DNA of 64,000 bases from Desulfatiglandales bacterium (GTDB taxonomy: Bacteria; Desulfobacterota; DSM-4660; Desulfatiglandales; Desulfatiglandaceae), in assembly GCA_963666345.1 (NCBI GenBank), contig OY762721.1, positions 3,552,001 to 3,616,000 on the forward strand. Direction: 5' to 3'. The position numbers were made by a program, and so were the translations under genes. Within the stretch, counting starts at the first letter, position 1, and each line of letters opens with the position of its first letter. The notes below the pieces were generated by a model. It did no database searches. It was not told where the DNA came from and saw nothing but the letters and a program-made list of their open reading frames with translations. This document shows, piece after piece, positions 7,380-34,670 of this stretch.

Positions 7380-7456
<77 letters not shown>

Positions 7457-9206: not shown

Positions 9207-9309
9207 TGTCAATAGGCGTTGAAAATTGACCCATCATCGGCGTCCAAAATTGACCCACCCCTGAGAAAAAAATATGGTTAAATAGTTGAGTAGTTGATCC
9301 CTTCTTTAT

Positions 9310-10041: not shown

Positions 10042-11545
10042 GGTATCCCTCCCTTACCAAACGTTCATAGCGGCGGCAGTCTGCTATGGGCTCTTGCTTG
10101 AGAATCAGATGGGAGGGGATACCCAAATCAGGCGTGCAATCCTGATCCTGATCCCTGTTTAAAAGATTGAGAACCACCTCTTTACTTACGGCCCTTATCT
10201 TTAGGGCCTCCTTACAGGCTTTACTTACAGCCTCAAGTCCGTAGAAAGGAACAGCATTTAGAATGGCCACAAACTGACGGTCCCAGTCGGAAAAACGGTT
10301 TTGAAGCCCATTTAGGACGCCTTCGACAGGATCGGGAAGTTGCCAGTCTTTAAAGGGGGCTCCATTACGGAGAGCCCCGGGCTTACGTTCAAGGACCGGG
10401 ACATAATGCCAGGGATTAAAAATAGTCTTGTTCTTTCCAAAATGCCTATCATGCTCTCCTACGATACAACCGTTATTTACTATCACTATCCGATCGGCAT
10501 ATACTCTCATATAGACCGCTTTACCCACCTGGCTGCAATTAACGCTGTATCGGTTCCGGTCATAGGTTACAAGTGAGCTGGGGGTAACCCTGGCTGGACG
10601 TTGTGCATATCCATCAAAGAGAGGTGGTAGATTTATCAGATAGGGTCTCTCTTCACTGTAGACCTGCCAAACCGTCTTATCAGATATTGTTGGATGCTTA
10701 CGGGTCTTTGCCCAGGTGATGCATTGTTCTCTAAGCAGCTCGTTTAGGTGTGTGAAATCCCTGGCCTTGATTCGGGGAGTGAAAAATCTCCTTCTGACCA
10801 CACCTACCTGGTTTTCCACCTGACCCTTTTCCCAACCTGCAGCAGGGGTGCAGCTTACCGGTTCAAATAAATAATGGGAACACAGTTGGCTGAAGCGGCT
10901 GTTGAACTGTCTTTCCCTTCCTCCCAGGATCTTGTTAACCACTGTTTTGAGATTGTCATAGATGCCTTTACGGCAAACTCCCCCAAAAAACTCAAAGGCC
11001 CTGATATGGGCATCAAACACCATCTCCTGGGTTTCTCTGGGGTAGGCAATACAAAGGAAGTAGCGGCTGTGACATAACCTTATATGTGCAACCTTTGCCT
11101 TTACTCTGCTTCCGTCCAGATCTACCCACTCATGACTCCAGTCAAACTGAAAGGCTTCTGCAGGATCAAATACCAAAGGTATAAATACCTCCTTTGGCAA
11201 GCTCCTTTGATCCTGGCGCCATCTTTGAACATATCTCCGTACGCTGTCATAGCCACCTTCGTAGCCGTTGAGTTGCAGCTCTTCAAAAAGTATCTGGGCT
11301 GTCCTGCGCAGTTTTTTGGGCAGTTTCTCGTCTTCTTCCAGAAAGCCTTTCAGCATGTCTATAAACGGCCCCAGCTTGGGTCTTGGCTGGTTGCTTCGTT
11401 CGTACTGAAAAGATGTTTCTCCGCTCCTTATCGCCTTTTTTACTGTATTTTTGCTAAGGCGCAGATCCTTCGCTGTCTGACGTATGGATTTGCCATCTCT
11501 GAGAACAGCTAATCGTATCTTACGGATTGTTTCCACTGTGAGCAT
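10028..11545 (-). CDS. istA: IS21 transposase IstA
   Basis: N-terminal HTH, QFDW, YDNLKT, EKGQVEN DDE motifs. Confidence 0.95.
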
Positions 11546-11659
11546 CCCTTTCCGCCTCCTTCTACCATAGTCACAGCAGAATAGAAGGCTTTCAGGGGTG
11601 GGTCAATTTTGGACGCCGATTCGCCCTATAGGTGGGTCATTTTTGCATGCCGATTCACA

Positions 11660-13020
11660 CCCCAGGAACGGGAAAGACATCCTTTGCTGAGGGTCTGGCA
11701 AAAGAATTGAAAATACCAGCATATACCATCACAAAAGATGCTGACAACAAGACTAAGCGTGCGAGACTTGCAATTATGGCCTGCTTAAACATTACAAACA
11801 GTGGAGATGGGTCCCTGGTAGTCGTAGATGAGGCTGACAACCTCCTTAACACAAGGTTCTCATGGTTTTCAAGGGGTGAGACTCAAGATAAGGGCTGGCT
11901 AAATAAACTGATGGAAGAGCCAGGGGTAAGGATGATCTGGATAACCAATGAGATAGATGACATTGCCCCATCGGTTTTAAGGAGATTTTCCTATAGCCTA
12001 CACTTTAAACCCTTTAACAAGCGTCAGAGAGTGCTTCTATGGGAGAACATCTTAAGATATAACAGGGTCAAGAGGTTTTTCACCAGTGATGAGGTAAATA
12101 GCCTTGCCGTCAGGTATAGGGTAAATGCCGGGGTCATAGATCTAGCGGTCAAGAAGGCTAAAGAGACGGGTATTACATCAAAGCCTGATTATCAAAATGC
12201 CTTAAGACTTGCCTTGGATGCCTACCTGGCTTTGGAAAATGGCGGGGAGAAGGAAATAGACAGGGAAAGAATCGAGAAAAACTACTCCTTGGAAGGTCTT
12301 AATATAAGGGGTGATCTTAAAGGAGCCTTAGGTCAGCTGGAAGCCTTTGATCAGTTTTTAAGGAAGGCTGATGATGACAGGGTATTAACCATTAATCTCT
12401 TGCTTTATGGACCACCTGGTACTGGAAAGAGCGAGTTTGCCAGATACCTTGGAAGGCACCTTGATAGGGAAATTATTGTCAAACGGATAAGTGACCTACA
12501 GAGCAAATGGGTAGGTGATTCAGAGAAGAATATCAGGGATGCCTTTTATGAAGCAGAAAGAGAAGAGGCAATCCTTATCATGGATGAGGCAGATAGCTTG
12601 GTTTTTAGCAGGGATTATGCCCTTCACTCATGGGAGATATCATTTACCAATGAATTTTTGGCCAGGTTGGAAAGGTTCAAAGGGATTCTTATTTGCACTA
12701 CCAATAGGCTGAAAGACCTTGATCAGGCGAGTATCAGGCGGTTTCAGCATAAGCTTGGGTTTGATTATCTGGATGCTGAAGGTAATCTGATTTTCTATCA
12801 AAAGCTTTTAGAAGGGCTGGTTGATGAACCATTGGATGATGAGAATATCGCTAAGCTAAAAGATATCCGTAACCTTGCTCCAGGAGATTTTAAGACGGTA
12901 AGGGATAGGTTTATCTTTATTTCCGATGATGGCCTGAACCATCAGACCCTTGTTGAGGCTTTAAGAAATGAGTCTGAAATCAAGAAGGTCTTCCTTAAAA
13001 CCGGCTCGATTGGCTTTTAA
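11660..13020 (+). pseudogene. Tandem-AAA ATPase, 5'-truncated by IS21 inside the first Walker A
   Basis: Begins ..PGTGKT at the IS end; VVDEAD; second domain GPPGTGKS, IMDEAD, LDQASIRRF; ends SIGF. Confidence 0.8.
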
Positions 13021-13145
13021 TGTTTTTTCTTTTGGAGATGTGAGTTTACGGGAAAGGGATTAAATATCCTAGGCATACATGCAACATTTTGCTTTAGCTA
13101 AATACTGGCATAACTTAGAGATATCAATGGTTTTGCTGCTTTTCG

Positions 13146-13163
13146 GGTACATGGCAAATATCA
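13146..13163 (+). repeat. 18-bp direct repeat GGTACATGGCAAATATCA, copy 1 (copy 2 at 21356-21373)
   Basis: Exact match read by eye. Confidence 0.85.
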
Positions 13164-13437
13164 GAAATTTGACTGGCCAGGACTCATCATTCAAAATATC
13201 TTCCTTGCCCCGGCTAAAAAGGCGGCGACTAGTCAGATTTATCAAATATATTTAAATAGGAAGATATAATTTTGATTTGAAATGAAATAACAGGTGCGCC
13301 AACAACAGTAGCTACGCTTTGTAATCTCAATGCCCCTAAAGATAAATGCGAGGTCTTTAGCCTTTAGATTTAACGACTAATTCCTAAAGGTTTGTTTATT
13401 ACCCATTTTTATTCATTAGCTTATTTATAAAATAATC

Positions 13438-18983: not shown

Positions 18984-19790
18984 GGTCTTGGAAACCTGAC
19001 TGGCTATGCATGATGACTCATGAAAATACTATGCCCAGAATACGTAGAGAAAGCCAGGTACGATATTTGGACAGTGATTGCTACAGCATTTAGCATGAAT
19101 GCGATATGATGGGCAAATGGAATGGCTTTTGTTTCGTGATATAGGTACTTATATAATATGTGACTCCTTAGCTTTGTCTCCATTATGGAAGCATATCCTA
19201 ACTGATCGCGACAAAACACCCTCGCCTGTGCCCAGAAGACTCCTGAAGTTTAACAATTTTGGAAACATATAGAAATCTGCCGTATGTGAACTGCTCAAAG
19301 TTCAATATACAAATGAGGATTTAACAATGATCAACTGATGCGAAATCATGTTCAAATGATGATTCCAATACTTCGCAAATATTCAGTTTCCCAAGTAGCG
19401 GGCTGTATAAAAGGAATAAATACCATGAAGATAGTTCCATAGATATGTGGGTTATTAGAGCGATTTCACTGGTCAGCATTTTTTGGCCAGAGGTTTTTAT
19501 GTAACAACAGCAGGTCGAGATAAAGAGGTAGAGTGGCAATATATCAAAAGGCAGCAGGAGTTTGATGAAAAACTCGACCAATCAAATATATTTTAGGGTA
19601 GGTCCTATTCAGAAGGCTTACAGTTTTAATTGTGCAGTTCACAACAAAACTCAGGCTTTGCCGGAGTTCGCAGACTATCTTTTATGTTTTTCATCCACCT
19701 TGATACAATGCTTTCAATCACGGGCTTAGGCCTGTGGTCTTCGTGTATTTTTTTCAATCGTGACAGGCCTGATGATTTTTTAACCAAGAG

Positions 19791-21086
19791 TTGAACAAAA
19801 TGGTTATTATAAAAGAAAAACCGGTTCTGCGGGCCTGGTCGGTGATGGGCGCTAGTGTGGGTATCAACCTTGCCCTCGGCATACTCTATGCGTGGAGCAT
19901 ATTCAAGGAACCGATAGTCCGCTCCATAGAGTCGGGAGACGGAGTATTTAACTGGAGCCCCTCTGCGGTGAATGATCCATATGCGGTAAGCCTCATGGTA
20001 TTTTCTTTTTCCATGGTGCCAGCCGGCTGGATCCAGGACAGGCTGGGGCCCAGGATTACCGCCCTTATGGGAGGCGTTCTGGTGGGAGGCGGGATGCTTG
20101 TCGCCTCTTTGAGTTCATCGTACATTGTCTGGATAATCGGTTTCGGGGTCATGGTGGGGGGTGGTATAGGCTGCGGTTACGCCTGTACCACCCCTGTTAC
20201 CCTGAAGTGGTTTCCCCCTTCCATGACCGGAATGGCCGCAGGGATCGTGGTTGCAGGAGCGGGACTTGCCCCTGTCTATATCGCGCCTCTTGCGCAGTAT
20301 CTGATAAATGAACATGATTTAGGCAAAACAGTTCTTATCTTTGGAGTAATGATAGCTGGCGCAGTCGGCATCCTTTCCTTTTTTCTGCATGACAGAAAAA
20401 TCGAACCCGGGAAAAGCGGGGCCTGCGGCATCCAGGACCATGTTACCGGTGACACGGAGGTTCTTCCTGGCCGGATATTACGGAGCGCAACCTTCCGGCA
20501 GGTCTGGCTTCTGTATTTTGCTGCATCAGGTGCCGGGCTCATGGTCATAGGGTCTCTTGCGGGGATGGCAAAGGCCTCCATGGGTGAAACGGCCTTTGTT
20601 GCTGTTGCCGTGGTTGCAATAGGAAATGCTCTGGGCAGGATTGTGGCTGGATCGGTATCAGACAGATTAGGTCGGGAAAACACCATCCTGGCGGTACTTG
20701 TAGTTCAGGCCTGCCTCATGTTCCTGGCCATCAGGATAGTTGGAGGTGCGGGTACAGGGGCATTTACACTTGTTTTCCTGGCATCCTTTATAGGATTCAA
20801 TTACGGGACCAATTCCGCCCTGTTTCCAGCCCTTGCCAGGGACCTCTGGGGCCTGAAAAACTTTGGCGCAAATTACGGTATGCTTTTCACCGCCTGGGGC
20901 ACCGGTGGGTTCGTAATGTCCAGGATCTCTCAGACGCTTACCGCCGCCACAGGGGGATATGATGCATCCTTCATACTCGCAGGAGTGGTCCTTCTCGCAG
21001 CTGCAGTTCTGGCGGTCGCGTTCAAAAAACGCAGATACCGAATAATGGCTGGTAAATATAAAGGTGCAGAGGAAGGTTATTGCTAA
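19791..21086 (+). CDS. MFS transporter, OFA (oxalate:formate antiporter)-like
   Basis: About 12 TM, YAWS.F, GWIQDRLGPR, KWFP, G.KNFGANYG. Confidence 0.88.
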   Translation: MNKMVIIKEKPVLRAWSVMGASVGINLALGILYAWSIFKEPIVRSIESGDGVFNWSPSAVNDPYAVSLMVFSFSMVPAGWIQDRLGPRITALMGGVLVGGGMLVASLSSSYIVWIIGFGVMVGGGIGCGYACTTPVTLKWFPPSMTGMAAGIVVAGAGLAPVYIAPLAQYLINEHDLGKTVLIFGVMIAGAVGILSFFLHDRKIEPGKSGACGIQDHVTGDTEVLPGRILRSATFRQVWLLYFAASGAGLMVIGSLAGMAKASMGETAFVAVAVVAIGNALGRIVAGSVSDRLGRENTILAVLVVQACLMFLAIRIVGGAGTGAFTLVFLASFIGFNYGTNSALFPALARDLWGLKNFGANYGMLFTAWGTGGFVMSRISQTLTAATGGYDASFILAGVVLLAAAVLAVAFKKRRYRIMAGKYKGAEEGYC

Positions 21087-21315
21087 AGAATATTATAGAA
21101 AAAAGGGGCAATATGAGGTTTTCTCCAGCTATCAAAAGCTGCGATATCCAAATCTAATTATGAGCGTAGCGACTTCATCTTGTGGTCATTTGATAATGCA
21201 AAACCAAAAGTTGTTGGTGGATATAACAGCTATAGCATATCTTGTCATATGAAAATGATGTCATAAAAAATAAGAAACCCCCATTAAATGAGGGAGTCCC
21301 AGATCCGTGAATATC

Positions 21316-21330
21316 TGTGATATGATCAGA
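21316..21330 (+). repeat. 15-bp repeat TGTGATATGATCAGA, copy 1 (also 27460-27474 and 43366-43380)
   Basis: Three exact copies in direct orientation. Confidence 0.9.
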
Positions 21331-21355
21331 TGACCATAGAAATTGATGTTTTTGC

Positions 21356-21373
21356 GGTACATGGCAAATATCA
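21356..21373 (+). repeat. 18-bp direct repeat GGTACATGGCAAATATCA, copy 2
   Basis: Exact match to 13146-13163. Confidence 0.85.
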
Positions 21374-21611
21374 CAAAATTAGCCTTTCTGGCAGATTTTT
21401 GTTTTTAAAAGACGCATATCTCTAGATCAGCTCATTGCTCACACATATACACTTAAAAATACGGAAAAAGTATTATTGGCATCTCTCAGTTGCTTATGTT
21501 ATTGTTTTTTAAGTATAGATAGTTTTAATGTCAATAAGTTGACTTTAAAGATATCGTGAAAAGCTGGAACCCTATTTCTATATCTGTTCAAAGGCATTCA
21601 AGGAGATTTTA

Positions 21612-22217
21612 ATGTTCAACTATAAGAATCTTATGAATAAATTTGATCCACCTATTTGGATTGGAAACCAATATGAAAATGGGGGAATTTTTGAAAAGCG
21701 CATCATTATAATTGGTGAATCAACATATTGGTCAGGTCAACAACCGAATATTTCAATGGCTACTGATCATTTCGCTGATAAGCCACACTCAGATAAATAC
21801 AGGACGAAATTAGTCAGAATGTTTTTAAATAAAGATAATGAAACGAGAGAGGAAATTGCTGAATTTTGGCATTCAGTATCTTTTTTCAATTATTTTAAAA
21901 CTGTTTTAAGCGGTCCTTATAGATCACCTACTCAAGAAATGTTGAAGCAGCATCAGCCGCTACCTGATATTCTAGATGCTCTTAAACCAAATTTGATTTT
22001 AATAGTAATGCTCCGAATGTGGGATTATTTTGTCTCTAACCCGCCCTGTAAAATAAAAATGGGTCCAATAATAAAAGGAGCAAGGCGTAGTCAAACTTAT
22101 CATTTTGAAAGTAAAAGTGGACTCCATTCAGCATTGGGGTATGCTGTGAAGCATCCAACTTATGCTAGCTGGTCTTTAGAGCATGTCTACACTAAGGAAG
22201 CAATAAAACTTGCGTGA
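21612..22217 (+). CDS. Hypothetical protein, possible uracil-DNA-glycosylase-like fold
   Basis: WIG..Y...IIIIGESTY near N-terminus, LKPNLIL, KHPT near C-terminus; RBS AAGGAG. Confidence 0.55.
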   Translation: MFNYKNLMNKFDPPIWIGNQYENGGIFEKRIIIIGESTYWSGQQPNISMATDHFADKPHSDKYRTKLVRMFLNKDNETREEIAEFWHSVSFFNYFKTVLSGPYRSPTQEMLKQHQPLPDILDALKPNLILIVMLRMWDYFVSNPPCKIKMGPIIKGARRSQTYHFESKSGLHSALGYAVKHPTYASWSLEHVYTKEAIKLA

Positions 22218-22259
22218 CAGGAAAAAATGGTCTTAAATCTCGATCAATATTTGCCTTTT

Positions 22260-22706
22260 CTATAGTTTTATTTTGTTAGTGAAATTGAATGCAGCTTGTA
22301 TATCCTGTAATTTCTTATCCCTGATCTTTTGATCCCATATTTCAAACTTTTTAAGCGCACCCATAAGTATAACCTTGTCTTTGTTAATCCCAGTAATCTT
22401 CCTGATTTGATCTGAAATAAATATTTCCCCTGCATCCGAAATGGATTTTTTATCCAAACAAAAGAAAGGCCTTTCGCCAGGAGATAAAGAAACCTTTTGT
22501 GAGAATAATTCTTCGGTTAATTCCCAAAAATAATCTTCAGGCAAAATTGTTAGTGAACCTTTTTCTCCATTCCATAATATACGCACCCCTTCATTTTTTA
22601 ATAAACCGATCCATATATCAGGGAGTAAAATTCTCGAATTCTCTATACTTCTATGGTATAACCCTCTAAAGAAGAGACCGTCTTTATATTTCTTTGAGGT
22701 GGCCAT
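22260..22706 (-). CDS. Divergent MraZ-like (SpoVT/AbrB fold) DNA-binding protein
   Basis: FRGLYHRSIENSRILLP and DAGEIFISDQIRKITGI..VILMGALKKFEIWD resemble the two MraZ repeats. Confidence 0.7.
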   Translation of the reverse strand: MATSKKYKDGLFFRGLYHRSIENSRILLPDIWIGLLKNEGVRILWNGEKGSLTILPEDYFWELTEELFSQKVSLSPGERPFFCLDKKSISDAGEIFISDQIRKITGINKDKVILMGALKKFEIWDQKIRDKKLQDIQAAFNFTNKIKL

Positions 22707-22743
22707 ACCGCCTTCCTTTCTATTTCCCTCAGTCTTTAAGCTA

Positions 22744-23376
22744 TTAATCAAATTTGGGTTTACTGTCTATGGAATGCTTCTCAGATTCAAAAACTACCAG
22801 CTCTTTTTCTGAGGTGATTATAAGGGTAAAGCCATGAGGGCTTTTATAGAACCAAGCCCAGCTATCCCAATCCCAATCAAGCGTTGGAATTTTATAAGCA
22901 TCTATAAAGGCTTCAGCAAAATCTTTAGGGGTTAGCTCATATACGTTAAACATCTTATCCACGCACATACTGCTAAACTGGAATTTATAGACCTTGCCGC
23001 TTTCTCTGTGAGCATATATCCCGAATGCGTCCCTATATTCCTCTGGCCTGAAACAATAATGCTGGCCAGTAGGAAGCTGCATCAACTCCCAATGGTATCC
23101 TGTGATTCTTTTAATTGTAGCCTTGGCGTCATTTATCGGCATCCCAAGGTAAAGACCTTTGAATTTGAGCGTTCGGGATTCAGTTTTTAGATTTTCAAAG
23201 GATTCCTTTTCAATTCCTACTATGTATCGAAACTGATCTGAGCCTTCGACAATATACGATCCGATTTTTCGCTGTTCATTTTCCGCACTGACAAAACCCG
23301 GGAGACAGGCGGTGAGCCCGAATATTGATGATATACCGAGGAATTGACGGCGTGTTATATTTAATTTTTTTGGCAT
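22744..23376 (-). CDS. Twin-arginine (Tat) exported hypothetical protein
   Basis: TRRQFLG + hydrophobic stretch + VSA cleavage site; start 23376 or TTG 23388. Confidence 0.7.
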   Translation of the reverse strand: MPKKLNITRRQFLGISSIFGLTACLPGFVSAENEQRKIGSYIVEGSDQFRYIVGIEKESFENLKTESRTLKFKGLYLGMPINDAKATIKRITGYHWELMQLPTGQHYCFRPEEYRDAFGIYAHRESGKVYKFQFSSMCVDKMFNVYELTPKDFAEAFIDAYKIPTLDWDWDSWAWFYKSPHGFTLIITSEKELVVFESEKHSIDSKPKFD

Positions 23377-23445
23377 TTTCAGTTTCAAGATTGTGAGAAG
23401 GGATATTATCCTTCAGATTATGATAAGCTGTTAACCTCTGACGGA

Positions 23446-25731
23446 TTATCTATAAGAGTTTCCATTTGCTCCAAACAATACAGGGATATGTTTTTTGTTT
23501 TTATATCTTCCTATAACTTTAAATAAATGATCATTGATAATGGACTTCCCATCACCGTTCAAAGAGGACTCTCTTTTGAACTGATTTGCTATAAGATCTA
23601 TTTCATTTAGATGCAGTGGATGATGCTCCACAACCTGAATAAATTTATCTTCAATATCTTTTCGGGCGTTAAAGTGTTTTGCCCATTGTCTTATTTGAAA
23701 TTCTTCGGGAGGGAGATGAATATTTAGAAAATAGTTGAACTCAATGGGTATTTCTTCCTCTCTGACAGGATTTGTAATTAAAAAAAGGATACCTTTAAAC
23801 CTCTCTAAATAATTATAAAAATCAAAAGATTCTTTTTCCTTATCATTATCTTCTTTATACTTGAGGTATCGTTCAAAAATTGACTTATCATCTACAAGGA
23901 GGGTCACTGAGCTGTGACCTATAAAGGTCCTGAATATGTATTCCAATGGATCAATCTCATCCTGTGTTAAGTTATCTTTTACTATCCTCGAAGAGCTTTT
24001 ACCAATAAGCATATCGGGCAGGTTGAACATTCTTACCTTTAAATTACATTCTTTAGCTACTGCCGCGGCACAATCAGTTCCTGTCTGAATATCGGAACAA
24101 CCCATTATGAGTTTTATATCCGTGTTGTTACTAGAATCTTTCATTATAGCTTTTATCAAATTGCTTATAACTTCTTTATCTCTGTGCCTTAAAAAGAGAT
24201 CTTTCATATTAATCTGAGGCGTGAAAATTTTCTCCGATAAATTGAACTCAAGCATCCTGCACGTTTGATGTTCTGCGGCTCTTTCGAGTTCTTCAGACGT
24301 CAATATCAGATTTGAATTTTTGTTTTTTACCAGCGTATTAGTTGTTGCCATGAAAAGAGTATTTTTGATCAGACCTCCTGTGAAAACATAATTTCTTGCA
24401 AATTTGCTAAGGTCTACATCTTTGCCAAATAAAGCATTGGGAGGAAGCAATGCTTCCCATATTTTCAGCCTTTCACGTTCGTCCGGCAGTTGGAAAGGGA
24501 TTTTTAAATTTATACGCCGGTCAAGAGCAGGATCAAGTTTAATAACTTTATTGGTTGCAAATATGGTAATGCACCCTGCCTTCTCAATTTCGATAAGCAG
24601 GTTTCGACTCTCTTCTGTGTTTTTACTGAAAACATCATCGCACTCATCAAAAAAGACAATTCCATTACATAACTTTGCCTCTTTGAAAATAGTATTTATC
24701 AACTCATTATTTGAAATTCTGAATTGAAAATCCTTGGAAAAATTTACAGATAGGAGCTCCATGTCCAGCTCGTTTGATAAGGCGTGTGCCAGCATGGTTT
24801 TACCCGTACCTGATGGACCATAAAACAATAATGTCAATCCAGTACCATATCCGTAGAATTTTTCGACAATAGTTCTTTCCTCTATTACCTGACTATGTAG
24901 ATAGTTCCTGGTCAGTTCTACAATTTCTCTTTTTACTCCCCCGGAAATAATTACCTGATCCAGTCCGATGCTTCCCTTTTTCCTGGAAATACATTGAAGG
25001 TCTGTATCATAAATATTGTTATCCTCAAGAATGAACCTGATAGCGCGCTCATGTAAATGAACCGGCATATCTAGAATATTTGTTGTATTAACGTAAAAAG
25101 AACCGGGAATAACAATCTCGTTTTTTATCAGAGGAGCTTTAATGTTAAAATATTTTCTGCTGGATATTTGATCCCGATATTCTGAATGAACAATTGATAA
25201 GATTGATCCAATAGTCATAGCGCTATCGGTTCGATCTTCAGGATCAAGTTCACAGCACCTGAAAAGGTTACGAAAGCTCTTTGATGTCTCATATGAAATC
25301 AATAGTATTAAAATAATACGTTCCGTATCATCAAGCTCATTAAGCTTACAGAAATGTTCAAAATTAAGATGTATTCCTGCCTCAAGAGAATTCCGTACCC
25401 GTTGATTTATATCCATCTCAATTTTTCTGAGCAACATCTCCAACTTTTCAGGAGTTATCTCATCAGGCGACAAACCTGAAGAATTAAAATTCAATTCCTG
25501 AGTAAAACCGCTAATTTTTTTATGTTTAAGAATTAATACGTCGTTATTTTCCTGATTGGAGGAAGCATCACGAAGGAATGCTTTAACAACTCTAACCCTT
25601 GCGGAATACTCCAGCGCTTCAAGGTGTTCAATACTATCTTTAAAGATACTTTCCTTCTTGGGATTATTGATTGCCATATAAACTGAGAAATCATTTCCTG
25701 ATAATGTCCTTTCAATTGTATTAAGGCCCAT
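23446..25731 (-). CDS. AAA+ ATPase: helical N domain, active AAA domain, degenerate second AAA domain
   Basis: GPSGTGKT, VFFDECD, FATN, LDPALDRR; second module with decayed Walker A (GCSDIQTGT), LLVDD, LITN. Confidence 0.88.
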   Translation of the reverse strand: MGLNTIERTLSGNDFSVYMAINNPKKESIFKDSIEHLEALEYSARVRVVKAFLRDASSNQENNDVLILKHKKISGFTQELNFNSSGLSPDEITPEKLEMLLRKIEMDINQRVRNSLEAGIHLNFEHFCKLNELDDTERIILILLISYETSKSFRNLFRCCELDPEDRTDSAMTIGSILSIVHSEYRDQISSRKYFNIKAPLIKNEIVIPGSFYVNTTNILDMPVHLHERAIRFILEDNNIYDTDLQCISRKKGSIGLDQVIISGGVKREIVELTRNYLHSQVIEERTIVEKFYGYGTGLTLLFYGPSGTGKTMLAHALSNELDMELLSVNFSKDFQFRISNNELINTIFKEAKLCNGIVFFDECDDVFSKNTEESRNLLIEIEKAGCITIFATNKVIKLDPALDRRINLKIPFQLPDERERLKIWEALLPPNALFGKDVDLSKFARNYVFTGGLIKNTLFMATTNTLVKNKNSNLILTSEELERAAEHQTCRMLEFNLSEKIFTPQINMKDLFLRHRDKEVISNLIKAIMKDSSNNTDIKLIMGCSDIQTGTDCAAAVAKECNLKVRMFNLPDMLIGKSSSRIVKDNLTQDEIDPLEYIFRTFIGHSSVTLLVDDKSIFERYLKYKEDNDKEKESFDFYNYLERFKGILFLITNPVREEEIPIEFNYFLNIHLPPEEFQIRQWAKHFNARKDIEDKFIQVVEHHPLHLNEIDLIANQFKRESSLNGDGKSIINDHLFKVIGRYKNKKHIPVLFGANGNSYR

Positions 25732-25743
25732 TTTATTAACTCC

Positions 25744-26313
25744 TTATTTTTTCAAATCAGGTTTTAAGGGTTCAACGATATCAACAATACCAAATTCTAA
25801 CGCTTCTTCCGGAGTAAGCCATGTGTCAACATCCCGCAGAAGATACTGCTCAAGCTTCTCCTGGGACTCTAGATTGCTGTACTTCAAGTAATGGCTAACA
25901 ATTCTTGAATGCTCGAGATCCTGTTCTTTGCGTTCAGCAATTAATTGACTGTGATTTCCCCAGGTGATTGCTGAATATCTGTGTGAAAGCATAGAAGTCC
26001 TGGGAGTAATTACCCTTCGACCCTTTGCTCCTGTCATAAATATAAGGAGGCTCATCGACGCTATCAGTCCAACTCCGGTTGTGTAGATTGGCAGGCGTGA
26101 CCACTCCATTATGTCTATTATCGCAAAGCCATCAGGGCACAAGCCCCCGGGTGAGTTGATAATCATCTGTATGTGATCAGTGCTGCCAGATAGATTATAT
26201 TCGATTATGTCTTTACACACATTTTCCGAAACCCCATTACTGATAGTGCCGGATAAAAAAATAATTCCGTATTCTTTTAAACCCTTGCCTTCAGGTTGGC
26301 CATTTTTATCCAT
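25744..26313 (-). CDS. ClpP-family (S14) serine protease
   Basis: IINSPGG, GLIASMS (Ser), MLSH (His), DTWLTPEEALEFGIVD (Asp). Confidence 0.92.
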   Translation of the reverse strand: MDKNGQPEGKGLKEYGIIFLSGTISNGVSENVCKDIIEYNLSGSTDHIQMIINSPGGLCPDGFAIIDIMEWSRLPIYTTGVGLIASMSLLIFMTGAKGRRVITPRTSMLSHRYSAITWGNHSQLIAERKEQDLEHSRIVSHYLKYSNLESQEKLEQYLLRDVDTWLTPEEALEFGIVDIVEPLKPDLKK

Positions 26314-26387
26314 ATCTTTTTCTCCTTAAGTTCCTTTAATTGTAACTAGCTATAATTATTTGACCCTTTTTTTTATTATTGTTAACA

Positions 26388-26409
26388 TCACATTACTCCA
26401 CGAATGTGA
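26388..26409. promoter_or_regulatory. Palindromic operator candidate between divergent ClpP and WYL genes
   Basis: TCACATT-N8-AATGTGA. Confidence 0.6.
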
Positions 26410-26448
26410 CATTTTTGGCCATATGAACTAAAAATTTTCTGGAAAAAA

Positions 26449-27447
26449 ATGAGAGGGAAAAATTTAATAAAACTCCTGAGGGCTCTCGAGCTTTTTTCAA
26501 AACCTGAGGGAACTACTATTGAAGAGATATCCGAGCACCTAGGAATAGATCGGAGGTCTGTCTACAGGGTGATAAATTTGGTTGAGGAGCTCGGATTCCC
26601 TATATATGACGAGGAAATACCATTAGAGAAGAGTAAAAGATGGAAGCTTGAGGAAAGCTATCTAAAAAAATTGCCCAATATGAAACTTCCGGATGTCAAA
26701 CTATCGATATCCGAGATAATGTCGCTATATTTATTGAAGAGTGAATCCGTTCTTTATAAAGGTACTGAAATATATAAACATATCAACTCAGCCTTTGAGA
26801 AAATCAGTCTTTTTGCCCCCAAGGACCTGTTTACACAACTAAAAAAAATCAGCGCCTTATTTGTCCCGTCATCAAAGTTTAGAAAAGACTATGCAGGAAA
26901 AGAAAAAATCATAGAGCAGCTTATGGACGCGATGCTCCAGAAAAAGACCTGCTATGTGAAATACCATTCCTTTTATGAGGACAGGATAAAGAATTTTAAA
27001 ATTGATCCATTGCATTTCTTCGAGAATGACGGTGGATTATATATTTTTGTTAATGCTACAAGTTTTGGCGATATTCTCACGCTCGCTGTTGAGAGGATCC
27101 AAGAGATAAGGGACGCTGGATCATGCTTTGAATACCCTAAAAACTTTAATCCGGAAGAGTTGCTGGAATCTGCCTTTGATTTAGTTTACGGAGATCCGGT
27201 CGAGGTCAAAATCTGGTTCTCCGCCCACCAGGCACGTTATATAAAAGAACGTATGTGGTCAAAGACCCAACAAATAGAAAACCAGGAAGACGGTTCAATT
27301 ATCTTATCGATGAAAACTTCAGGTCAATGGGATATTATCAGGTGGGTCCTTTCCTATGGTAGTGATGCTAAAGTGATGGAGCCTGAAGGGTTGAAAAAAA
27401 AGATTATGGTGGAATTAACAGCAGTTGTTAATAAGTATAATGAATAA
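26449..27447 (+). CDS. HTH-WYL-WCX transcriptional regulator (YafY/BrxR/PafBC-like)
   Basis: N-terminal wHTH (RRSVYR), Y.S..IDPL..LY..AVERI WYL domain, RWVLSYG..V.EP WCX domain. Confidence 0.92.
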   Translation: MRGKNLIKLLRALELFSKPEGTTIEEISEHLGIDRRSVYRVINLVEELGFPIYDEEIPLEKSKRWKLEESYLKKLPNMKLPDVKLSISEIMSLYLLKSESVLYKGTEIYKHINSAFEKISLFAPKDLFTQLKKISALFVPSSKFRKDYAGKEKIIEQLMDAMLQKKTCYVKYHSFYEDRIKNFKIDPLHFFENDGGLYIFVNATSFGDILTLAVERIQEIRDAGSCFEYPKNFNPEELLESAFDLVYGDPVEVKIWFSAHQARYIKERMWSKTQQIENQEDGSIILSMKTSGQWDIIRWVLSYGSDAKVMEPEGLKKKIMVELTAVVNKYNE

Positions 27448-27459
27448 AAGAATTAAAGT

Positions 27460-27474
27460 TGTGATATGATCAGA
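27460..27474 (+). repeat. 15-bp repeat TGTGATATGATCAGA, copy 2
   Basis: Exact match, 12 bp after the WYL stop. Confidence 0.9.
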
Positions 27475-27593
27475 ATATCTGTGATCTTTGATGATGAAAA
27501 TATTCTGGTGTTTTTTGGTGAGATCACAGCAATTGCGATCCGTGTGATATGAAAGTGGTATCTTTCCTAGCTGGAGATTGAACCAAAACAAAT

Positions 27594-28224
27594 AAATACA
27601 GTCCTTGCCTAAACCGCCTACCATTTTATATCATCCCTAGAAACAAAGCATGACAGGAGTCTTATGCCAATGAGTCTAACCAAAGCTCAAATCGTTGAAG
27701 GGATACACCAAGGGACGGGTTTAACAAGAAAACAAGCGGGTGATGCCTTAGAAGACATCCTTGATATCATTAAGAACAGGCTTGAAACCGGGGAAAGTGT
27801 CTTGATTTCAGGTTTTGGTAGGTTTGCAGTCAAGGAAAAGCGCCCTAGGCGAGGTAGAAACCCTGCCACAGGCAAGTCCATAATGCTTGATGGTAGAAAA
27901 GTCGTCAGTTTTAAGTGCTCTGGTGTCCTAAAAGACAGGCTAAATAAGTCATAAGTCACTCAATTACGAGGTATTGGACTTCTATACCGTATAAATCACT
28001 CGATTTTCACTTCCCTCAAGTCCTTTAAACATAGTTGTAAGATCAAAAATATGCGATTGAGGTCTTAAAATACCAGTTTGCGTTTAAAATATTGATGTTT
28101 CACGCTCCTTTTTAACCGTTTCTCACTCAAAACCACCTTTTTCAACAACAAAACACCCTTCTGTAAGAAAACTTCAAACCATTAACATAAGAGGCCTGGA
28201 CCTGCTTCATAAATTACTGTTTTT
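27594..28224 (+). repeat. About 630-bp block (IHF gene plus flanks) duplicated at 43499-44129
   Basis: Long identical stretches before, within and after the IHF genes. Confidence 0.92.
27670..27954 (+). CDS. ihfA: Integration host factor alpha-like protein, copy 1
   Basis: LTKA, ISGFGRF, GRNPATG, VVSFKCS; start inferred from the paralogue. Confidence 0.9.
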   Translation: MSLTKAQIVEGIHQGTGLTRKQAGDALEDILDIIKNRLETGESVLISGFGRFAVKEKRPRRGRNPATGKSIMLDGRKVVSFKCSGVLKDRLNKS

Positions 28225-28561
28225 TGTACTTGATAAGTCATCTTGTAATGTCAACTGATCAATTTTTGCCAACAACTCATGGATAAACCGATTGAAGCAG
28301 GTAGTTCAAGAAATATCAATACAGTTTATTATTGATTATGTCAGTTTAAATTGTTTTATTTTGAAGTGATCAATGGATGATTTGAGGGCATGAACCTGGC
28401 TTCTCAATGCTTTTAATTAAGTCAGATAAATATCATCAAAGACTGCAGGAAACTCTCAGAGAGGATAATATCGTAGAGCCAACAGTCATCAAATATCAAA
28501 GCTTATGGAATTCGGAAAAACCGCTCCCTCAAAACCAAATTAAAAAAAGAAAAAAACTTGA

Positions 28562-28661
28562 GTGACAGTATGACAGCAAATTTCAAACATTATTTTTTAT
28601 AGTTAATATAATTACTTAATTAAATTAACAAATATAAAAATTTTTACCGTCATACCGTCAC
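28562..28661. other. Putative replication origin: inverted repeats around an AT-rich core
   Basis: GTGACAGTATGACAG ... CCGTCATACCGTCAC with about 70 bp nearly all A/T between. Confidence 0.55.
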
Positions 28662-28881
28662 AAGAAATTAGTCTGAAACAACCTTACTTTTGAGTTTTAT
28701 CAGACGCTTTTTTGAAGTCCTGTTATAGACTACTTCTACACTGTTTTTTTCTAAGACATGGACTGCTTGTGAATCGGCATGCAAAAATGACCCACCTATA
28801 GGGCGAATCGGCGTCCAAAATTGACCCACCCCTGAAAGCCTTCTATTCTGCTGTGACTATGGTAGAAGGAGGCGGAAAGGG

Positions 28882-30399
28882 ATGCTCACAGTGGAAACAA
28901 TCCGTAAGATACGATTAGCTGTTCTCAGAGATGGCAAATCCATACGTCAGACAGCGAAGGATCTGCGCCTTAGCAAAAATACAGTAAAAAAGGCGATAAG
29001 GAGCGGAGAAACATCTTTTCAGTACGAACGAAGCAACCAGCCAAGACCCAAGCTGGGGCCGTTTATAGACATGCTGAAAGGCTTTCTGGAAGAAGACGAG
29101 AAACTGCCCAAAAAACTGCGCAGGACAGCCCAGATACTTTTTGAAGAGCTGCAACTCAACGGCTACGAAGGTGGCTATGACAGCGTACGGAGATATGTTC
29201 AAAGATGGCGCCAGGATCAAAGGAGCTTGCCAAAGGAGGTATTTATACCTTTGGTATTTGATCCTGCAGAAGCCTTTCAGTTTGACTGGAGTCATGAGTG
29301 GGTAGATCTGGACGGAAGCAGAGTAAAGGCAAAGGTTGCACATATAAGGTTATGTCACAGCCGCTACTTCCTTTGTATTGCCTACCCCAGAGAAACCCAG
29401 GAGATGGTGTTTGATGCCCATATCAGGGCCTTTGAGTTTTTTGGGGGAGTTTGCCGTAAAGGCATCTATGACAATCTCAAAACAGTGGTTAACAAGATCC
29501 TGGGAGGAAGGGAAAGACAGTTCAACAGCCGCTTCAGCCAACTGTGTTCCCATTATTTATTTGAACCGGTAAGCTGCACCCCTGCTGCAGGTTGGGAAAA
29601 GGGTCAGGTGGAAAACCAGGTAGGTGTGGTCAGAAGGAGATTTTTCACTCCCCGAATCAAGGCCAGGGATTTCACACACCTAAACGAGCTGCTTAGAGAA
29701 CAATGCATCACCTGGGCAAAGACCCGTAAGCATCCAACAATATCTGATAAGACGGTTTGGCAGGTCTACAGTGAAGAGAGACCCTATCTGATAAATCTAC
29801 CACCTCTCTTTGATGGATATGCACAACGTCCAGCCAGGGTTACCCCCAGCTCACTTGTAACCTATGACCGGAACCGATACAGCGTTAATTGCAGCCAGGT
29901 GGGTAAAGCGGTCTATATGAGAGTATATGCCGATCGGATAGTGATAGTAAATAACGGTTGTATCGTAGGAGAGCATGATAGGCATTTTGGAAAGAACAAG
30001 ACTATTTTTAATCCCTGGCATTATGTCCCGGTCCTTGAACGTAAGCCCGGGGCTCTCCGTAATGGAGCCCCCTTTAAAGACTGGCAACTTCCCGATCCTG
30101 TCGAAGGCGTCCTAAATGGGCTTCAAAACCGTTTTTCCGACTGGGACCGTCAGTTTGTGGCCATTCTAAATGCTGTTCCTTTCTACGGACTTGAGGCTGT
30201 AAGTAAAGCCTGTAAGGAGGCCCTAAAGATAAGGGCCGTAAGTAAAGAGGTGGTTCTCAATCTTTTAAACAGGGATCAGGATCAGGATTGCACGCCTGAT
30301 TTGGGTATCCCCTCCCATCTGATTCTCAAGCAAGAGCCCATAGCAGACTGCCGCCGCTATGAACGTTTGGTAAGGGAGGGATACCATGCTGCGCAATGA
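28882..30399 (+). CDS. istA: IS21 transposase IstA
   Basis: Protein identical to copy 1. Confidence 0.95.
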
Positions 30400-31117
30400 T
30401 ATCATGGACCAGATGGAAAAACTAAAGTTGCGGGGTATGCAGTCCATTTATGATGAAGTTGTCTCCAATGGACGCAAGAGCCATTCAACGCCTGAAAAGG
30501 TAATCCTGGAACTGCTCAAGGCTGAAGCTGCCGAAAGATATATAAGGAGTATCCGATATCGTATGGGACAGGCCAGGTTTCCTGTCCTTAAAGATATCGA
30601 TGGCTTTGATTTTAACGGGGCCTGTGTTGATGAAGCCCAGATTAGGTCTATTTATCAGGGTGATTTTATAGCCGAACATATCAACCTGATTTTTGTAGGT
30701 GGCACCGGTACGGGCAAAACCCATTTAGCCATAACTATAGCGGCCCAGGCCATAAGGAATGGCAGGAAGTGCAAGTTTTATAACCTGGTGGATCTGGCAA
30801 ATGAGCTTGAGCAGGAAAAAATGATTGGATTGGCCGGCAAAATCACAGCAAGACTACTTCGATTTGATCTTGTGGTCCTCGATGAACTGGGTTATCTGCC
30901 TTTTTCCAAAAACGGCAGTCAACTGCTCTTTCATCTTATATCAAAACTCTACGAACAGACATCCATAGTGATTACCACCAACTTGACCTTCGGTGAATGG
31001 CCCCAAGTCTTTGGAGATAAAAAGATGACTACGGCCATGCTTGATCGGTTGACTCATCATTGTGAAATTATAGAAACAGGTAACGAAAGCTGGAGAATGA
31101 AACACGCAGCTTCATAG
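30386..31117 (+). CDS. istB: IS21 helper ATPase IstB
   Basis: Protein identical to copy 1. Confidence 0.95.
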
Positions 31118-31374
31118 ATAAAGAAGGGATCAACTACTCAACTATTTAACCATATTTTTTTCTCAGGGGTGGGTCAATTTTGGACGCCGATGATGGGTCA
31201 ATTTTCAACGCCTATTGACAATCCTATGGATGAAATAAAAGCAGCTGTATGAGCTTGTTTTCTAAAGAGATATAAGTAGCTGAAGATATTGGGATAAGAT
31301 TAGATATTGGCTTTGATGGTCTTTAGCTGGAGATGTTTGTAAAGGCTTACCTGGAAGACAGGGAGAAGGTAAAG

Positions 31375-31689: not shown

Positions 31690-31766
31690 TTTTGAAAAAG
31701 CCAAACCCCGAGCAATCGAGGGACGGAAAGCCACGGGTCTTAAATAGACAGCCGGGTTGCCGAAAG
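31690..31766 (+). ncRNA. Cyclic dinucleotide GEMM-I (c-di-GMP-I class) riboswitch
   Basis: GCCAAACC..GCAA..GGGACGGAAAGCCACGGGTCT..AGACAGCCGGGTTGCCGAA matches GEMM-I consensus; in the 5' UTR of the protease gene. Confidence 0.9.
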
Positions 31767-31832: not shown

Positions 31833-34670
31833 ATGGTTTTCAAAATCACGAGATTTACATTCTTGACAGCCTTTCTGATCTTTATAATTCTAGCCAATTG
31901 GGCTTTCTGTGAACAGTGGCCTCCTAACTCATGGTATCGATGTCCATATTGCTACCATGTTCAGGACAATTACAATTCAGGGGTATGTGAAAGCTGTGGC
32001 AACCAGTATATTTCTGAAGTTGGTGATAAACATGATGGATGGATAAAAACTTTCTGGGATCAGGGTTATCATTACAATACTAAATGCCCTGAGATTAGAG
32101 GAGAGCAGGCTCCGGTCGGTTGTACGGCAACAGCAATGGCTCAAATAATTAATTTTTGGGAGTATCCCACAAGCGTAAGTTTTTCAGATTTGCCAAAGGA
32201 GCAAGGTGGGGATGCTTATGATTATTGGGATAAATGGGGAATTCTGCCAATAAATAAAATAAATATATTTGAAGATTCATATGCCTCAGTAAATGATCTT
32301 AATAACGCTTTAGAAACCATAGATTACTATACTGATGAAGAATCTCAATCTAGCTCTAGTGCTAGAGATGAACAGGCCTATTTTTGTTTTGGTGTTGGTG
32401 CCAAACTTGGAATGAAATATCATAAAGAAGAATCAGGTATACGTTTAAGTGCGGATGCTTACCTAGAGGGTTTTAACTATGGTTCAGCTATATGGGAGTT
32501 TAAGGATTATTGCATATGGAACAAATATGAAGACACTATTATTGAAAATTTAAAGAAGGGATGGCCAGTTCAAATTGGGATCATCACGGATGGCTCAGAT
32601 GGTCATTCAATAGTTGTAGATGGTTACAAAGATTCAGGTGTTGAACGTTTCCACACCAATTGGGGATGGGGCCTTGGTTACACTGGTTGGATAAATTTAC
32701 CCGATACTGGGACTGATTATAAATATGTACAACAAATTGTTTACAATATAGCTCCCTACAAAGGTTGGAACCAATGGGGTGCAGATGAAAGAAATTCCTT
32801 CAGCACACTTTATAACGCACCAGATGAAAATGTTATAAAAGAGAAATGGAAAGTTACATGCCCTTCAAGCCATAGTTTCAGTGGCTTAGTAGTTGGATCA
32901 GCTAATAATATTTATGCTGCTTGCTCACCAGATGGAACTTCCCAGCACCCCAAAGTCTATATGTACAACCAGTTCGGTTCAAAAACTGGAGATCCAATTG
33001 ATATTCCAGAAAATGTTAAAATTGAATTTATATGCCAAGAAACAGATCCTGAAAGCTCAGATAGGTATGTATTCATTTCCACAGAAAACGGATTCGTATA
33101 CAGGATAGATACCCGCAGTCGAACATGTAATAAAATATGGACAGAACCAAATAGTGATGACATCGATTGTTTAAAAATAGATTCAGACGGCTATTTATAT
33201 GCTTGCACGCTTCATAACCTTTACCAATTAGATTGCAATGGAAATGAAAAATGGCATTATTCTGCACCTGGTGACACGATGTTTTTAGGAGGTGGGAAAA
33301 ATCCCGCAATCGATGAGAAAAGGAATAAAGTCTATGTTGTATATTATGATTCAAATTCTAAAACGCCTTATCTTGTCCAGCTATCCAGGGCATCTGGGCC
33401 TAGTTTTATGAACACAAGATCATTTGGATCTGTCACCATCCCAACCATAAGAACTCCAATAGTAGGTCCTGATGGCACTATTTATATAGGAATATACACA
33501 ACTCTTTATGCACTTAATTATAGTGATATAAATGGTCCAACAAAGTGGACTAAAAATTTAAACTGCAGAAATGGCTGTTTAGATCCTAATGGTGAAAAGA
33601 TATATGTTCCATTATGGGAACAGGAGGATGGTCAATGGTATAATAAAATACGAGCAATGAATACCCTAAATGGTGATGAAATATGGGAAATCAAATTTCA
33701 GCAAGACCCTTCTAAAGATGATATTTGGCAGCCATATACAGCTGGTAATGGTATGGTATGCTTTACTGTTGAAACAGGTGGAGACCCTGAAACCTATACC
33801 GTTTACGGCTATCAGGATAATGGAAATAGCTACGATAAAAAATGGCAATTTGATGCTGGAACATCAGGCGGGGATTTTGCCTTCGGTCCGGGATCTACTT
33901 TATATTTTTGGGGAAAGACCGGTGTTGCTGAAACAATTTATGCTATTTCACAGGGTGAAACTGGAAAAGCCAATGAAGCTGGTATGGGCTTCACAGATAA
34001 TTCATCTCCCGAAAGTCCTCATAGTCCGACTCCAAATGATGGGGCTACTGATTTAGATATAGATGTTTTCCTAGATTGGGAGTCTGGAGATCCAGATTTC
34101 CATGCTTTAAAGTACTCAGTTTTTGTTGGAAAGCAAGGTAGTATTATGGTGCCAGTTGTTACTGACTTAACAAATAGCAATTATACATTGGAAAATTTAG
34201 AAGGGGGGAAGCTTTACAATTGGCAGATTATTGCAAGTGATGGCCAAGCAATTACAAAAGGTCCAACTTGGGCGTTTACAACAGAAATAGAAGATTTATG
34301 TCCCGATGATCCAAACAAAACAGAACCTGGCATATGTGGGTGTGGTGTGCCAGATACAGACACAGACGGAGATGGGGCTGCAGACTGTATTGATTTAGAT
34401 GACGATGATGATGGCCTACAAGATATTATTGAGGATGTAAATCAAAACGGAGCAGTTGATTCGGGAGAAACTGATCCTCTTAATCCTGATAGCGATGATG
34501 ATGGGATGTTAGACGGATGGGAAGTGCAATATGGTCTTGATCCTCTGGTAGATGATGCATCGGGCGATCTAGATGGTGATGGGGTTTTAAATTATCAAGA
34601 ATATCTTAACGGCACAGATCCATCAAGACCACCATTTTTGCCCTTCTTACCATTACTCTTAGAGGATTAG
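31833..34670 (+). CDS. Secreted C10 (streptopain-like) cysteine protease with PQQ-like beta-propeller, FN3-like domain and Asp-rich Ca-binding repeats
   Basis: Signal peptide; WDQG.YN..CP, VGCTATAMAQI (Cys), GHSIVVDGY..FHTNWGWG (His); xKW repeats; DTDGDG/DSDDDG repeats. Confidence 0.88.
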   Translation: MVFKITRFTFLTAFLIFIILANWAFCEQWPPNSWYRCPYCYHVQDNYNSGVCESCGNQYISEVGDKHDGWIKTFWDQGYHYNTKCPEIRGEQAPVGCTATAMAQIINFWEYPTSVSFSDLPKEQGGDAYDYWDKWGILPINKINIFEDSYASVNDLNNALETIDYYTDEESQSSSSARDEQAYFCFGVGAKLGMKYHKEESGIRLSADAYLEGFNYGSAIWEFKDYCIWNKYEDTIIENLKKGWPVQIGIITDGSDGHSIVVDGYKDSGVERFHTNWGWGLGYTGWINLPDTGTDYKYVQQIVYNIAPYKGWNQWGADERNSFSTLYNAPDENVIKEKWKVTCPSSHSFSGLVVGSANNIYAACSPDGTSQHPKVYMYNQFGSKTGDPIDIPENVKIEFICQETDPESSDRYVFISTENGFVYRIDTRSRTCNKIWTEPNSDDIDCLKIDSDGYLYACTLHNLYQLDCNGNEKWHYSAPGDTMFLGGGKNPAIDEKRNKVYVVYYDSNSKTPYLVQLSRASGPSFMNTRSFGSVTIPTIRTPIVGPDGTIYIGIYTTLYALNYSDINGPTKWTKNLNCRNGCLDPNGEKIYVPLWEQEDGQWYNKIRAMNTLNGDEIWEIKFQQDPSKDDIWQPYTAGNGMVCFTVETGGDPETYTVYGYQDNGNSYDKKWQFDAGTSGGDFAFGPGSTLYFWGKTGVAETIYAISQGETGKANEAGMGFTDNSSPESPHSPTPNDGATDLDIDVFLDWESGDPDFHALKYSVFVGKQGSIMVPVVTDLTNSNYTLENLEGGKLYNWQIIASDGQAITKGPTWAFTTEIEDLCPDDPNKTEPGICGCGVPDTDTDGDGAADCIDLDDDDDGLQDIIEDVNQNGAVDSGETDPLNPDSDDDGMLDGWEVQYGLDPLVDDASGDLDGDGVLNYQEYLNGTDPSRPPFLPFLPLLLED

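Follow-up and report, generated by a model that had tools for sequence, protein, structure and literature searches.

A 64,000-nt stretch of a Desulfatiglandales bacterium genome (GenBank assembly GCA_963666345.1, contig OY762721.1, positions 3,552,001 to 3,616,000 of the forward strand), here called the window, contains a 6.1-kb block of six genes bounded by two direct copies of a 15-nt sequence, TGTGATATGATCAGA. The genome under study is designated G000. Coordinates are those of the window, except that positions preceded by "genome" refer to the whole contig. An earlier note on this DNA had read the two ends of the block and a third copy of the 15-mer near 43.37 kb as the filled and empty alleles of a single capture site. 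All three copies that it placed are exact, at 21316-21330 (A), 27460-27474 (B) and 43366-43380 (C), and the genes that it named between A and B (UDG-like, MraZ-like, Tat, AAA, ClpP and WYL) are present, as is the IHF gene beyond B.

The block begins with a gene encoding a 201-aa protein that has a UDG-like fold and no Pfam match (21612-22217, plus strand). On the minus strand follow the overlapping genes of a 163-aa MraZ-like protein and a 214-aa protein with a Tat-type signal (22260-23388), which lie downstream of the genes encoding a 761-aa AAA ATPase with a winged-helix domain and weak IetA-like matches and a 189-aa ClpP-like protease (23446-26313, minus strand). The last gene encodes a 332-aa HTH-WYL-WCX regulator (26449-27447, plus strand), the stop codon of which stands 12 nt before copy B. 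The WYL, ClpP and AAA genes form a candidate defence operon. The spacer between the ClpP and WYL genes (26314-26448) contains an inverted repeat, TCACATT-N8-AATGTGA, that is likely to be the operator of the WYL regulator. The 15-mer itself was considered as such an operator and rejected, the spacer repeat having only TGTGA in common with it.

Three copies of the 15-mer in the window compare with 0.16 expected by chance, and none of 100 shuffled sequences reached three; allowing up to two mismatches gave no match beyond A, B and C. By self-BLAST of the window both of the flank matches proposed in the earlier note proved real. The left flank of A matches that of C (21234-21336 versus 43286-43386, 76.7% identity over 103 nt, E 1e-12) and the right flank of B matches that of C (27460-28224 versus 43366-44129, 86.6% over 766 nt). 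The right-flank match begins at base 1 of the 15-mer, and the left-flank match runs 6 nt past the 15-mer.

A modular intergenic repeat around the 15-mer

Exact copies of the 15-mer occur at five genome positions, A, B, C, D (genome 2982119) and E (genome 1174614, minus strand), and a further site, F (genome 4004604, minus strand), matches 14 of its 15 bases. Iterated nhmmer searches found the surrounding sequence at seven genome places only, E being composed of two tandem copies (E and E2). Profiles of sub-ranges of this unit resolved it into modules having the layout M1-M2-core, then either M3 or a second type of right arm that we call Rcas, then M4. M1 (about 78 nt) was found at nine places, four of which lack the rest of the unit, M2 at six places, the core at seven, M3 at five (B, C, D, E and E2) and M4 at three (B, C and D), each of the latter being followed by an IHF/HU paralog. 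Six two-mismatch matches to the 15-mer elsewhere in the genome are unrelated. One 13/15 match (genome 2028979, 65 nt before a single-copy IS110-type gene) was dropped as a candidate site, since six two-mismatch matches compare with about seven expected by our own estimate. At genome 2026896-2030096 the single-copy IS110-type transposase gene is grouped with a gene for a RAYT-like Y1 transposase of 339 aa and with one copy of a 45-nt repeat present more than 25 times in the genome.

All three units in the window are on the plus strand. The left arm of A (21163-21300, from nhmmer profiles and alignments) consists of M1 at 21163-21237 and M2 at 21239-21300, the latter carrying the box TGTCATATGAAAATG. 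Its core at 21316-21330 is followed by the Rcas arm at 21331-21380 (TGACCATAGAAA..TTTTTGCGGTACATGGCAAATATCACA). Core B (27460-27474) has neither M1 nor M2 on its left, and its right arm (27475-27667) comprises M3, in which GATCACAG is inverted relative to the core, and M4, which contains a second TGTGATATGAAAG box and a promoter-like TTGCCT-18-TATCAT. The supposed empty site is unit C (43214-43572), composed of a cut M1, M2, the core at 43366-43380, M3 and M4.

The right arm of A and F reads TGACCAYARAA..TTGATG.TTTT..GG.ACATGGCAAATATCA. We considered Rcas to be a diverged M3, given that MAFFT aligns the two, yet the M3 profile does not detect A or F and hence we treat Rcas as a different arm. 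Its resemblance to a promoter (TTGATG-17-AAATAT) failed a promoter scan, and a matrix of arm identities with free end gaps was uninformative (shuffled control mean of 76%). Rcas also occurs alone at two places: 13133-13170 (plus strand), where it lies without a clear core behind an IetA-like AAA gene, and genome 2943059. Site F reads M1-M2-core-Rcas followed by AAACCGCCTACC, a 12-mer piece of M4 found four times in the genome, the other three being within the M4 modules of B, C and D. Genes encoding a SulP transporter and a cNMP-binding protein come next. Site E (genome 1174412-1174783, locus L057) has two tandem M2-core-M3 units situated between a sensor-kinase gene and a convergent msrA-like gene, and its second core lacks the first seven bases.

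The units lie behind the stop codons of unrelated genes (MFS, sensor kinase and WYL) and carry three direct TGTGATATGA boxes spaced about 75-85 nt apart plus an inverted copy. The motif is no genome-wide operator: convergent CTGTGAT...ATCACAG pairs number five in the genome against 0.74 expected, and four of the five lie inside units B, C and D. The 15-mer is the invariant core of a low-copy, recombination-prone modular intergenic repeat, and the 43.37-kb site is a paralogous copy of that unit rather than an allele. The notion of filled and empty alleles of one site fails here: A/B and C are diverged paralogous copies (77-87% identity) of a repeat found at seven genome places. Similarly, the site had been described as lying upstream of an IHF gene throughout an element family, and an IHF paralog follows only three of the seven units (B, C and D).

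Exchange of flanks at the core

Alignment of five copies gave a single run of invariant columns, 21316-21329 (14 columns), other invariant columns being scattered. Comparison of D with E and with B located two abrupt switches at this core. D and E are 100% identical from position -328 through the last core base and diverge immediately after it. This perfect tract of 343 nt lies within an older 89% homology, the stretch from -425 to -329 containing 11 differences. D and B are unrelated left of the core and 100% identical from core base 1 for 1308 nt (27460-28767 versus genome 2982119-2983426), at which point an insertion sequence (IS) of the IS21 family interrupts B. D is thus a chimera with an E-type left arm and a B-type right arm, the switch falling inside the 15-mer.

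All four combinations of arms exist: M2 with M3 (C, D and E), M2 with Rcas (A and F), the end of the WYL gene with M3 (B) and the end of the WYL gene with Rcas, the last in a genome of another genus (G150, below). DNA left and right of the core has been exchanged more than once in G000. In addition, one contig of run X4 leads from 15 letters of a D/E-type left arm through the core to a right arm that is 93% like that of B. A second class of breakpoint coincides with the end of Rcas. A block made up of an IetA-like AAA ATPase gene and Rcas (11660-13162) recurs at genome 2941579-2943081 with 99.5% identity; the match starts at the end of an IS21 copy and extends no further than the last bases of Rcas.

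Relatives of the operon and an Rcas motif in a second genus

Among 209 genomes of the order, 8 (counting G000) have relatives of the AAA ATPase at E <=1e-20. In four of these (G079, G020, G150 and G122) the ATPase is 46-47% identical over most of its length and is accompanied by the ClpP protein (71-75%) and the WYL regulator (69%). The genes of the 201-, 163- and 214-aa proteins, the MFS gene and the IHF gene are absent at these four orthologous loci. With the WYL protein as query these four genomes came up again in the order (5 of 209, counting G000), and a sample of the phylum added eight others (9 of 401, counting G000).

In G150 the sequence TTTTTGCGGTGCATGGC lies about 47 nt after the WYL stop codon and matches 17 of 18 bases of the Rcas arm of A (21349-21366), and a weaker likeness to core TGATA and to ATGACC precedes it. 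In the window the Rcas motif would stand 45 nt after the WYL stop codon if cores B and A were one, and a circular 6.1-kb block would thus be expected to show the G150 arrangement. The motif is rare: the 24-mer, allowing up to five changes, occurs four times in G000. A degenerate Rcas 16-mer has three matches in the 8.2-Mb G150 genome versus one for the reversed control, and the other two matches sit in GC-rich sequence. Rcas was not found after the WYL gene in G020, in G122 or at the eight phylum-level loci, and the G079 locus is cut by a contig end.

Genes beside the units and the island setting

The IHF/HU paralogs beyond B (96 aa, 27664-27954) and C (94 aa, 43574-43858) are both encoded on the plus strand and both continue into a conserved non-coding tail of about 270 nt, the conserved stretches spanning 27664-28224 and 43574-44129. 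This tail (27955-28224, 43859-44129 and genome 3648255-3648530) is conserved in three copies directly after an IHF/HU paralog and ends at ...ATTACTGTTTTT. The third copy lies behind a sulfate adenylyltransferase gene and has no unit. Neither the units nor the tail matched Rfam; the tail may be a small RNA or a regulatory tail. Primase-helicase and CyRepA1-like genes stand next to D and C. Relatives of the primase-helicase beside D were found in nine other genomes among the 209, and at none of 11 such loci was an IHF gene or a unit present within 1.5 kb, which also speaks against the IHF element family of the earlier note. The viral contigs gave no primase-helicase relatives.

Sites A, B and C all lie in a low-GC island of about 65 kb that covers nearly the whole window and is bounded by a tRNA-Arg gene (ACG, 7380-7456, plus strand) and a repeat of its last 48 nt at genome 3624976-3625023 (about window position 72976). 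Just inside is the island tyrosine integrase gene (7561-8868, minus strand), encoding Arm-DNA-bind_2 and Phage_integrase domains. It is the recombinase gene nearest to the sites, 12.4 kb left of A. The GC content of the 6.1-kb block is 34-38%, that of the MFS transporter gene left of unit A (19791-21086) is 50-55% and that of the TRAP transporter genes further left is 42-45%, with a sharp step at about 21100. A c-di-GMP-I-GGC riboswitch (31691-31765, 71.8 bits) lies just 5' of the gene of a 945-aa C10 peptidase-domain protein (31833-34670).

The IS21-family element (2453 nt) has 15 copies in the genome, three of which are in the window (9207-11659, 28768-31220 and 40758-43210) and are 99.8-100% alike. 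None of the three has a target duplication, whereas 6 of the remaining 12 genome copies have one of 6-8 nt. As the window copies lack target duplications, the island has been rearranged by recombination between IS copies. The copy at 28768-31220 (minus strand) terminates the identity of B with D and truncates a primase-helicase gene that continues in copy D. The copy at 40758-43210 (plus strand) interrupts unit C within M1, at a distance of 155 nt from the core.

Search for a recombinase, a folded site, excision products and wider spread

The genome has about eleven tyrosine recombinase loci, including two Xer-like genes (genome 2516243-2517037 and 2871651-2872484). Of these, the island integrase lies closest to A and already has a site of its own at tRNA-Arg. 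None of the 17 genome matches to Y1/RAYT-type genes lies beside a unit. None of the six genes of the block encodes a transposase, and the two ends of the block do not form an inverted repeat. The 15-nt direct repeat at A and B is not a target duplication, because the 15-mer also occurs at four other loci. The core plus right arm of A, B, C, E and F gave no attC-like fold as single-stranded DNA (z of -0.16 to -1.39; 20 to 90 of 200 shuffles folded as well, with both strands tested for A, B and C).

We found no cassette array: two cores bracket one block, and the next core is 15.9 kb off, beyond two IS21 copies. Neither a second captured cassette with both junctions nor a right junction matching F was found anywhere in the genome. 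Contigs of four runs, compared with 19500-28760, contained no join of 21315 to 27475 or of 27459 to 21331, the products expected of excision, although rare excision products would not show in contigs. In runs X3 and X4 the depth was about 2-5 over 21354-27500 and 0 over 19500-21044, which is no evidence either way. The one joint listed, in run X1 (21377 back to 19500), was discarded, as it fits the upstream Rcas copy on the same long contig. Contigs of X1 (the organism's own run) and of two sediment runs carry, beside 21343-21376, an Rcas copy with flanks outside the assembled genome (best match 6/30 mismatches), which is either an unassembled copy or a second strain.

BLAST of the unit plus the IHF gene against 61 genomes (G000 included) found the unit in this species only, two other genomes matching the IHF gene part alone. 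A sequence-only covariance model gave three weak matches in 104 other genomes of the family. In G130 CCTGTGATATGA is followed by an Rcas-like motif, G021 has two M2-box-type sites (behind a response-regulator gene and a PLD-like gene) and the match in G013 is doubtful. Exact scans with GTGAANNNCTGTGATATGATCAG gave no match in genome contigs and three in metagenome contigs. Two of these are the F locus of the same species (99.9-100%), and the third was discarded as a chance match in a eukaryotic coding region beside a tubulin gene. The scan with CTGTGATATGATCAGNTGANCA found nothing in viral contigs, and CTTGCCTAAACCGCCTACC had one match, in an Acidobacteriaceae metagenome-assembled genome. The unit would seem to be confined to this species, with faint traces in two or three genera; in those BLAST, model and exact-pattern scans that were examined no unit was found outside this bacterial family.

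Discussion

The most likely account of the block, to which we assign a probability of about 0.5, is that it entered by one reciprocal crossover within the core. One partner would have been a contiguous and probably circular piece, in which the 3' end of the WYL gene was followed after 12 nt by the core, then Rcas, the 201-aa gene and onward to the ClpP-AAA operon. The other would have been a resident unit, M1-M2-core-M3-M4-IHF. The expected products are a left junction M1-M2-core-Rcas and a right junction in which the end of the WYL gene, the core, M3, M4 and the IHF gene follow one another, and these are the structures at A and B. A single crossover with a circle is proposed because the WYL-side and Rcas arms face inward at opposite ends of the block. 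The same reading is favoured by the strictly conserved core, by both of the exact switch points, by the existence of all four arm combinations, by the rare Rcas motif behind the WYL gene in G150, by the failure of the M3 profile to detect A and F and by the concentration of CTGTGAT...ATCACAG pairs in units B, C and D. We infer that a tyrosine recombinase acted in trans, either the island integrase or a host enzyme of the Xer type, possibly aided by the unit-linked IHF paralog, for which the TGTGATATGA boxes would serve as protein-binding sites.

Several observations weigh against a crossover of this kind. The 201-, 163- and 214-aa genes are extra to the conserved WYL-ClpP-AAA triad. Of 11 examinable loci only one, that of G150, has Rcas behind the WYL gene, and the gapped alignment score at this locus was matched by 13 of 2000 shuffles and by five other tiles of the locus. 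The gapped score not being distinctive, the G150 case rests on the ungapped motif and its position. Since in F the M4 piece AAACCGCCTACC follows Rcas, Rcas can be an inner module of the unit and is not a cassette-specific arm. The IS21 copies that lack target duplications show that the island has been rearranged. The 15-mer is the longest identity among the diverged units, and homologous recombination would tend to resolve there too. Finally, the six block genes include no recombinase, and no PF00589 match lies closer than 10 kb to D, E or F. Serine recombinases are absent from the genome, and its sole integron-type integrase frame (TIGR02249 above cut-off, 472 bits, with one in-frame TGA) is at genome 1359039-1359980, 2.2 Mb from the window.

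The best of the alternatives, which we regard as possible and somewhat unlikely, is that A and B are independent mosaic repeats of the REP/BIME kind that have been altered by homologous recombination or gene conversion in the 15-mer, and that nothing was captured. The location of the units behind stop codons of unrelated genes (in G021 as well as in G000), the occurrence of M1 alone at four more places, the free combination of modules (the tandem unit in E, Rcas plus the M4 piece in F), the second breakpoint class at the end of Rcas and the resemblance of the D-E perfect tract to a conversion tract are all as such repeats would have them. Left to chance, however, would be the finding that the WYL-side and Rcas arms, which are contiguous in G150, face inward at opposite ends of the block, and that the homology of B begins exactly at core base 1. 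Moreover, the units lack a stable hairpin and have seven copies only, unlike REP families, and 15 identical bases are few for an exchange of the RecA type, which weighs against homologous recombination.

Going beyond the single event, the core could belong to a shuffling system that lacks a recombinase of its own, in which an enzyme supplied in trans (of the host Xer type, or an island integrase), helped by the unit-linked IHF paralog bound near the TGTGATATGA boxes, exchanges DNA in the 15-mer and thereby moves self-contained blocks, the candidate defence operon being one, between islands. We consider this rather unlikely.

The earlier note had envisaged site-specific cassette capture that is integron-like in effect, and in its full form this would be a dedicated capture platform upstream of the IHF gene, taking up cassettes (self-contained or lacking a promoter) successively by means of an unrecognised recombinase of its own. 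What stands of this proposal is the exchange of flanks at the 15-mer and a 6.1-kb block having the junction pattern of one crossover; F also resembles a second left junction, and an IHF paralog adjoins three units. What does not stand is the platform, which we think improbable. There is no array and no second two-junction cassette, F has no matching right junction in the genome, and E, A and F have no IHF gene. No recombinase is found at the sites, nor is there a conserved neighbour gene that could be one. Furthermore, no unit lies beside the primase-helicase relatives (0 of 11 loci), a folded attC-like site is lacking, and the family does not extend beyond this species except for faint traces in two or three genera, none of them outside the bacterial family. 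The note's own remark that no attC or IntI signature is present is borne out by the folding results, the intI-type frame being 2.2 Mb distant. Equally doubtful is a pure binding reading, in which a regulator or replication protein would bind the 15-mer and the TGTGATATGA boxes (as an operator, or as iterons of a small element composed of the IHF and primase-helicase genes), binding would account for their conservation and the breakpoints would be secondary: the three regularly spaced direct boxes with their inverted copy, the conservation of the motif in G021 and G130, the promoter-like site in M4 before the IHF gene and the primase-helicase and CyRepA1-like genes next to D and C would suit it, but it fails to explain 100% tracts that start or end at the core, or the lack of the whole left arm at B. 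Moreover, no replication gene is near E, A or F, primase-helicase relatives have no unit and Rcas fails the promoter scan.

Comparison with known systems places the block among recombination-site-bounded cargo in genomic islands and not among integrons. It resembles integron cassettes in being an accessory gene block without a recombinase, bounded by short repeated sites and having the junctions of circle integration. It differs in that the locus has no IntI, no attC-like single-stranded hairpin and no array, and the core, as read from its letters, lacks a GTTRRRY-type site.

The pdif sites are 28-bp two-arm Xer sites of alternating orientation in which inverted 11-bp arms surround a 6-bp spacer. 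As outlined in two reports on Acinetobacter plasmids (PMC13141974, PMC6449649), dif modules flanked by such XerC/XerD sites resemble the present block in that they carry no recombinase gene, that short conserved sites are where they are shuffled, presumably through a host enzyme supplied in trans, and that the combinations of arms or modules vary. The present sites differ in being two direct copies of a 15-nt block in a chromosomal island. By eye there is no conserved two-arm inverted structure around the core, the sequences diverging directly to its left and within 0-6 nt to its right.

Attachment sites of the lambda type have a 15-bp common core, arm-type sites and IHF as cofactor. The likeness is that the identity of the partners is limited to the 15-nt core, with the arms switching at its edges (B versus C and D, D versus E), that putative long arms (about 185 nt left and about 190 nt right) carry repeated boxes, that an IHF-family gene stands beside three units and that the island integrase has an arm-binding domain. 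In contrast, that integrase has its own tRNA-Arg site (the 48-nt repeat), and no integrase lies beside D, E or F. REP, BIME and RIP elements are mosaic intergenic repeats linked with recombination and IS insertion. The units share with them the position behind stop codons, the modular mosaic and the inverted motif pairs, and differ in their number (seven copies versus hundreds), in having no stable palindrome and in having no cognate RAYT beside a unit. What defines the defence-system hot spots of islands, integrative and conjugative elements and phage satellites is a set of flanking genes conserved from one element to many others. The likeness here is a candidate defence operon with a WYL regulator carried as cargo in a tRNA-linked island between conserved pieces; the difference is that the flanks are repeat copies and that no family of related islands was found.

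If the core is only a recombination-prone repeat, the locus is an ordinary example of how repeats shape a heavily rearranged genome rich in IS copies. If the shuffling reading is true, the system would be comparable in effect to dif modules and integron cassettes, with an unrelated site and in sediment bacteria of the sulfate-reducer type. Should the core prove to be a genuine site-specific crossover point, it would represent a further route, beside integrons and dif modules, by which blocks without a recombinase pass between islands, would offer a concrete 15-base substrate for finding the trans-acting recombinase and would explain how the candidate defence operon arrived in this island.

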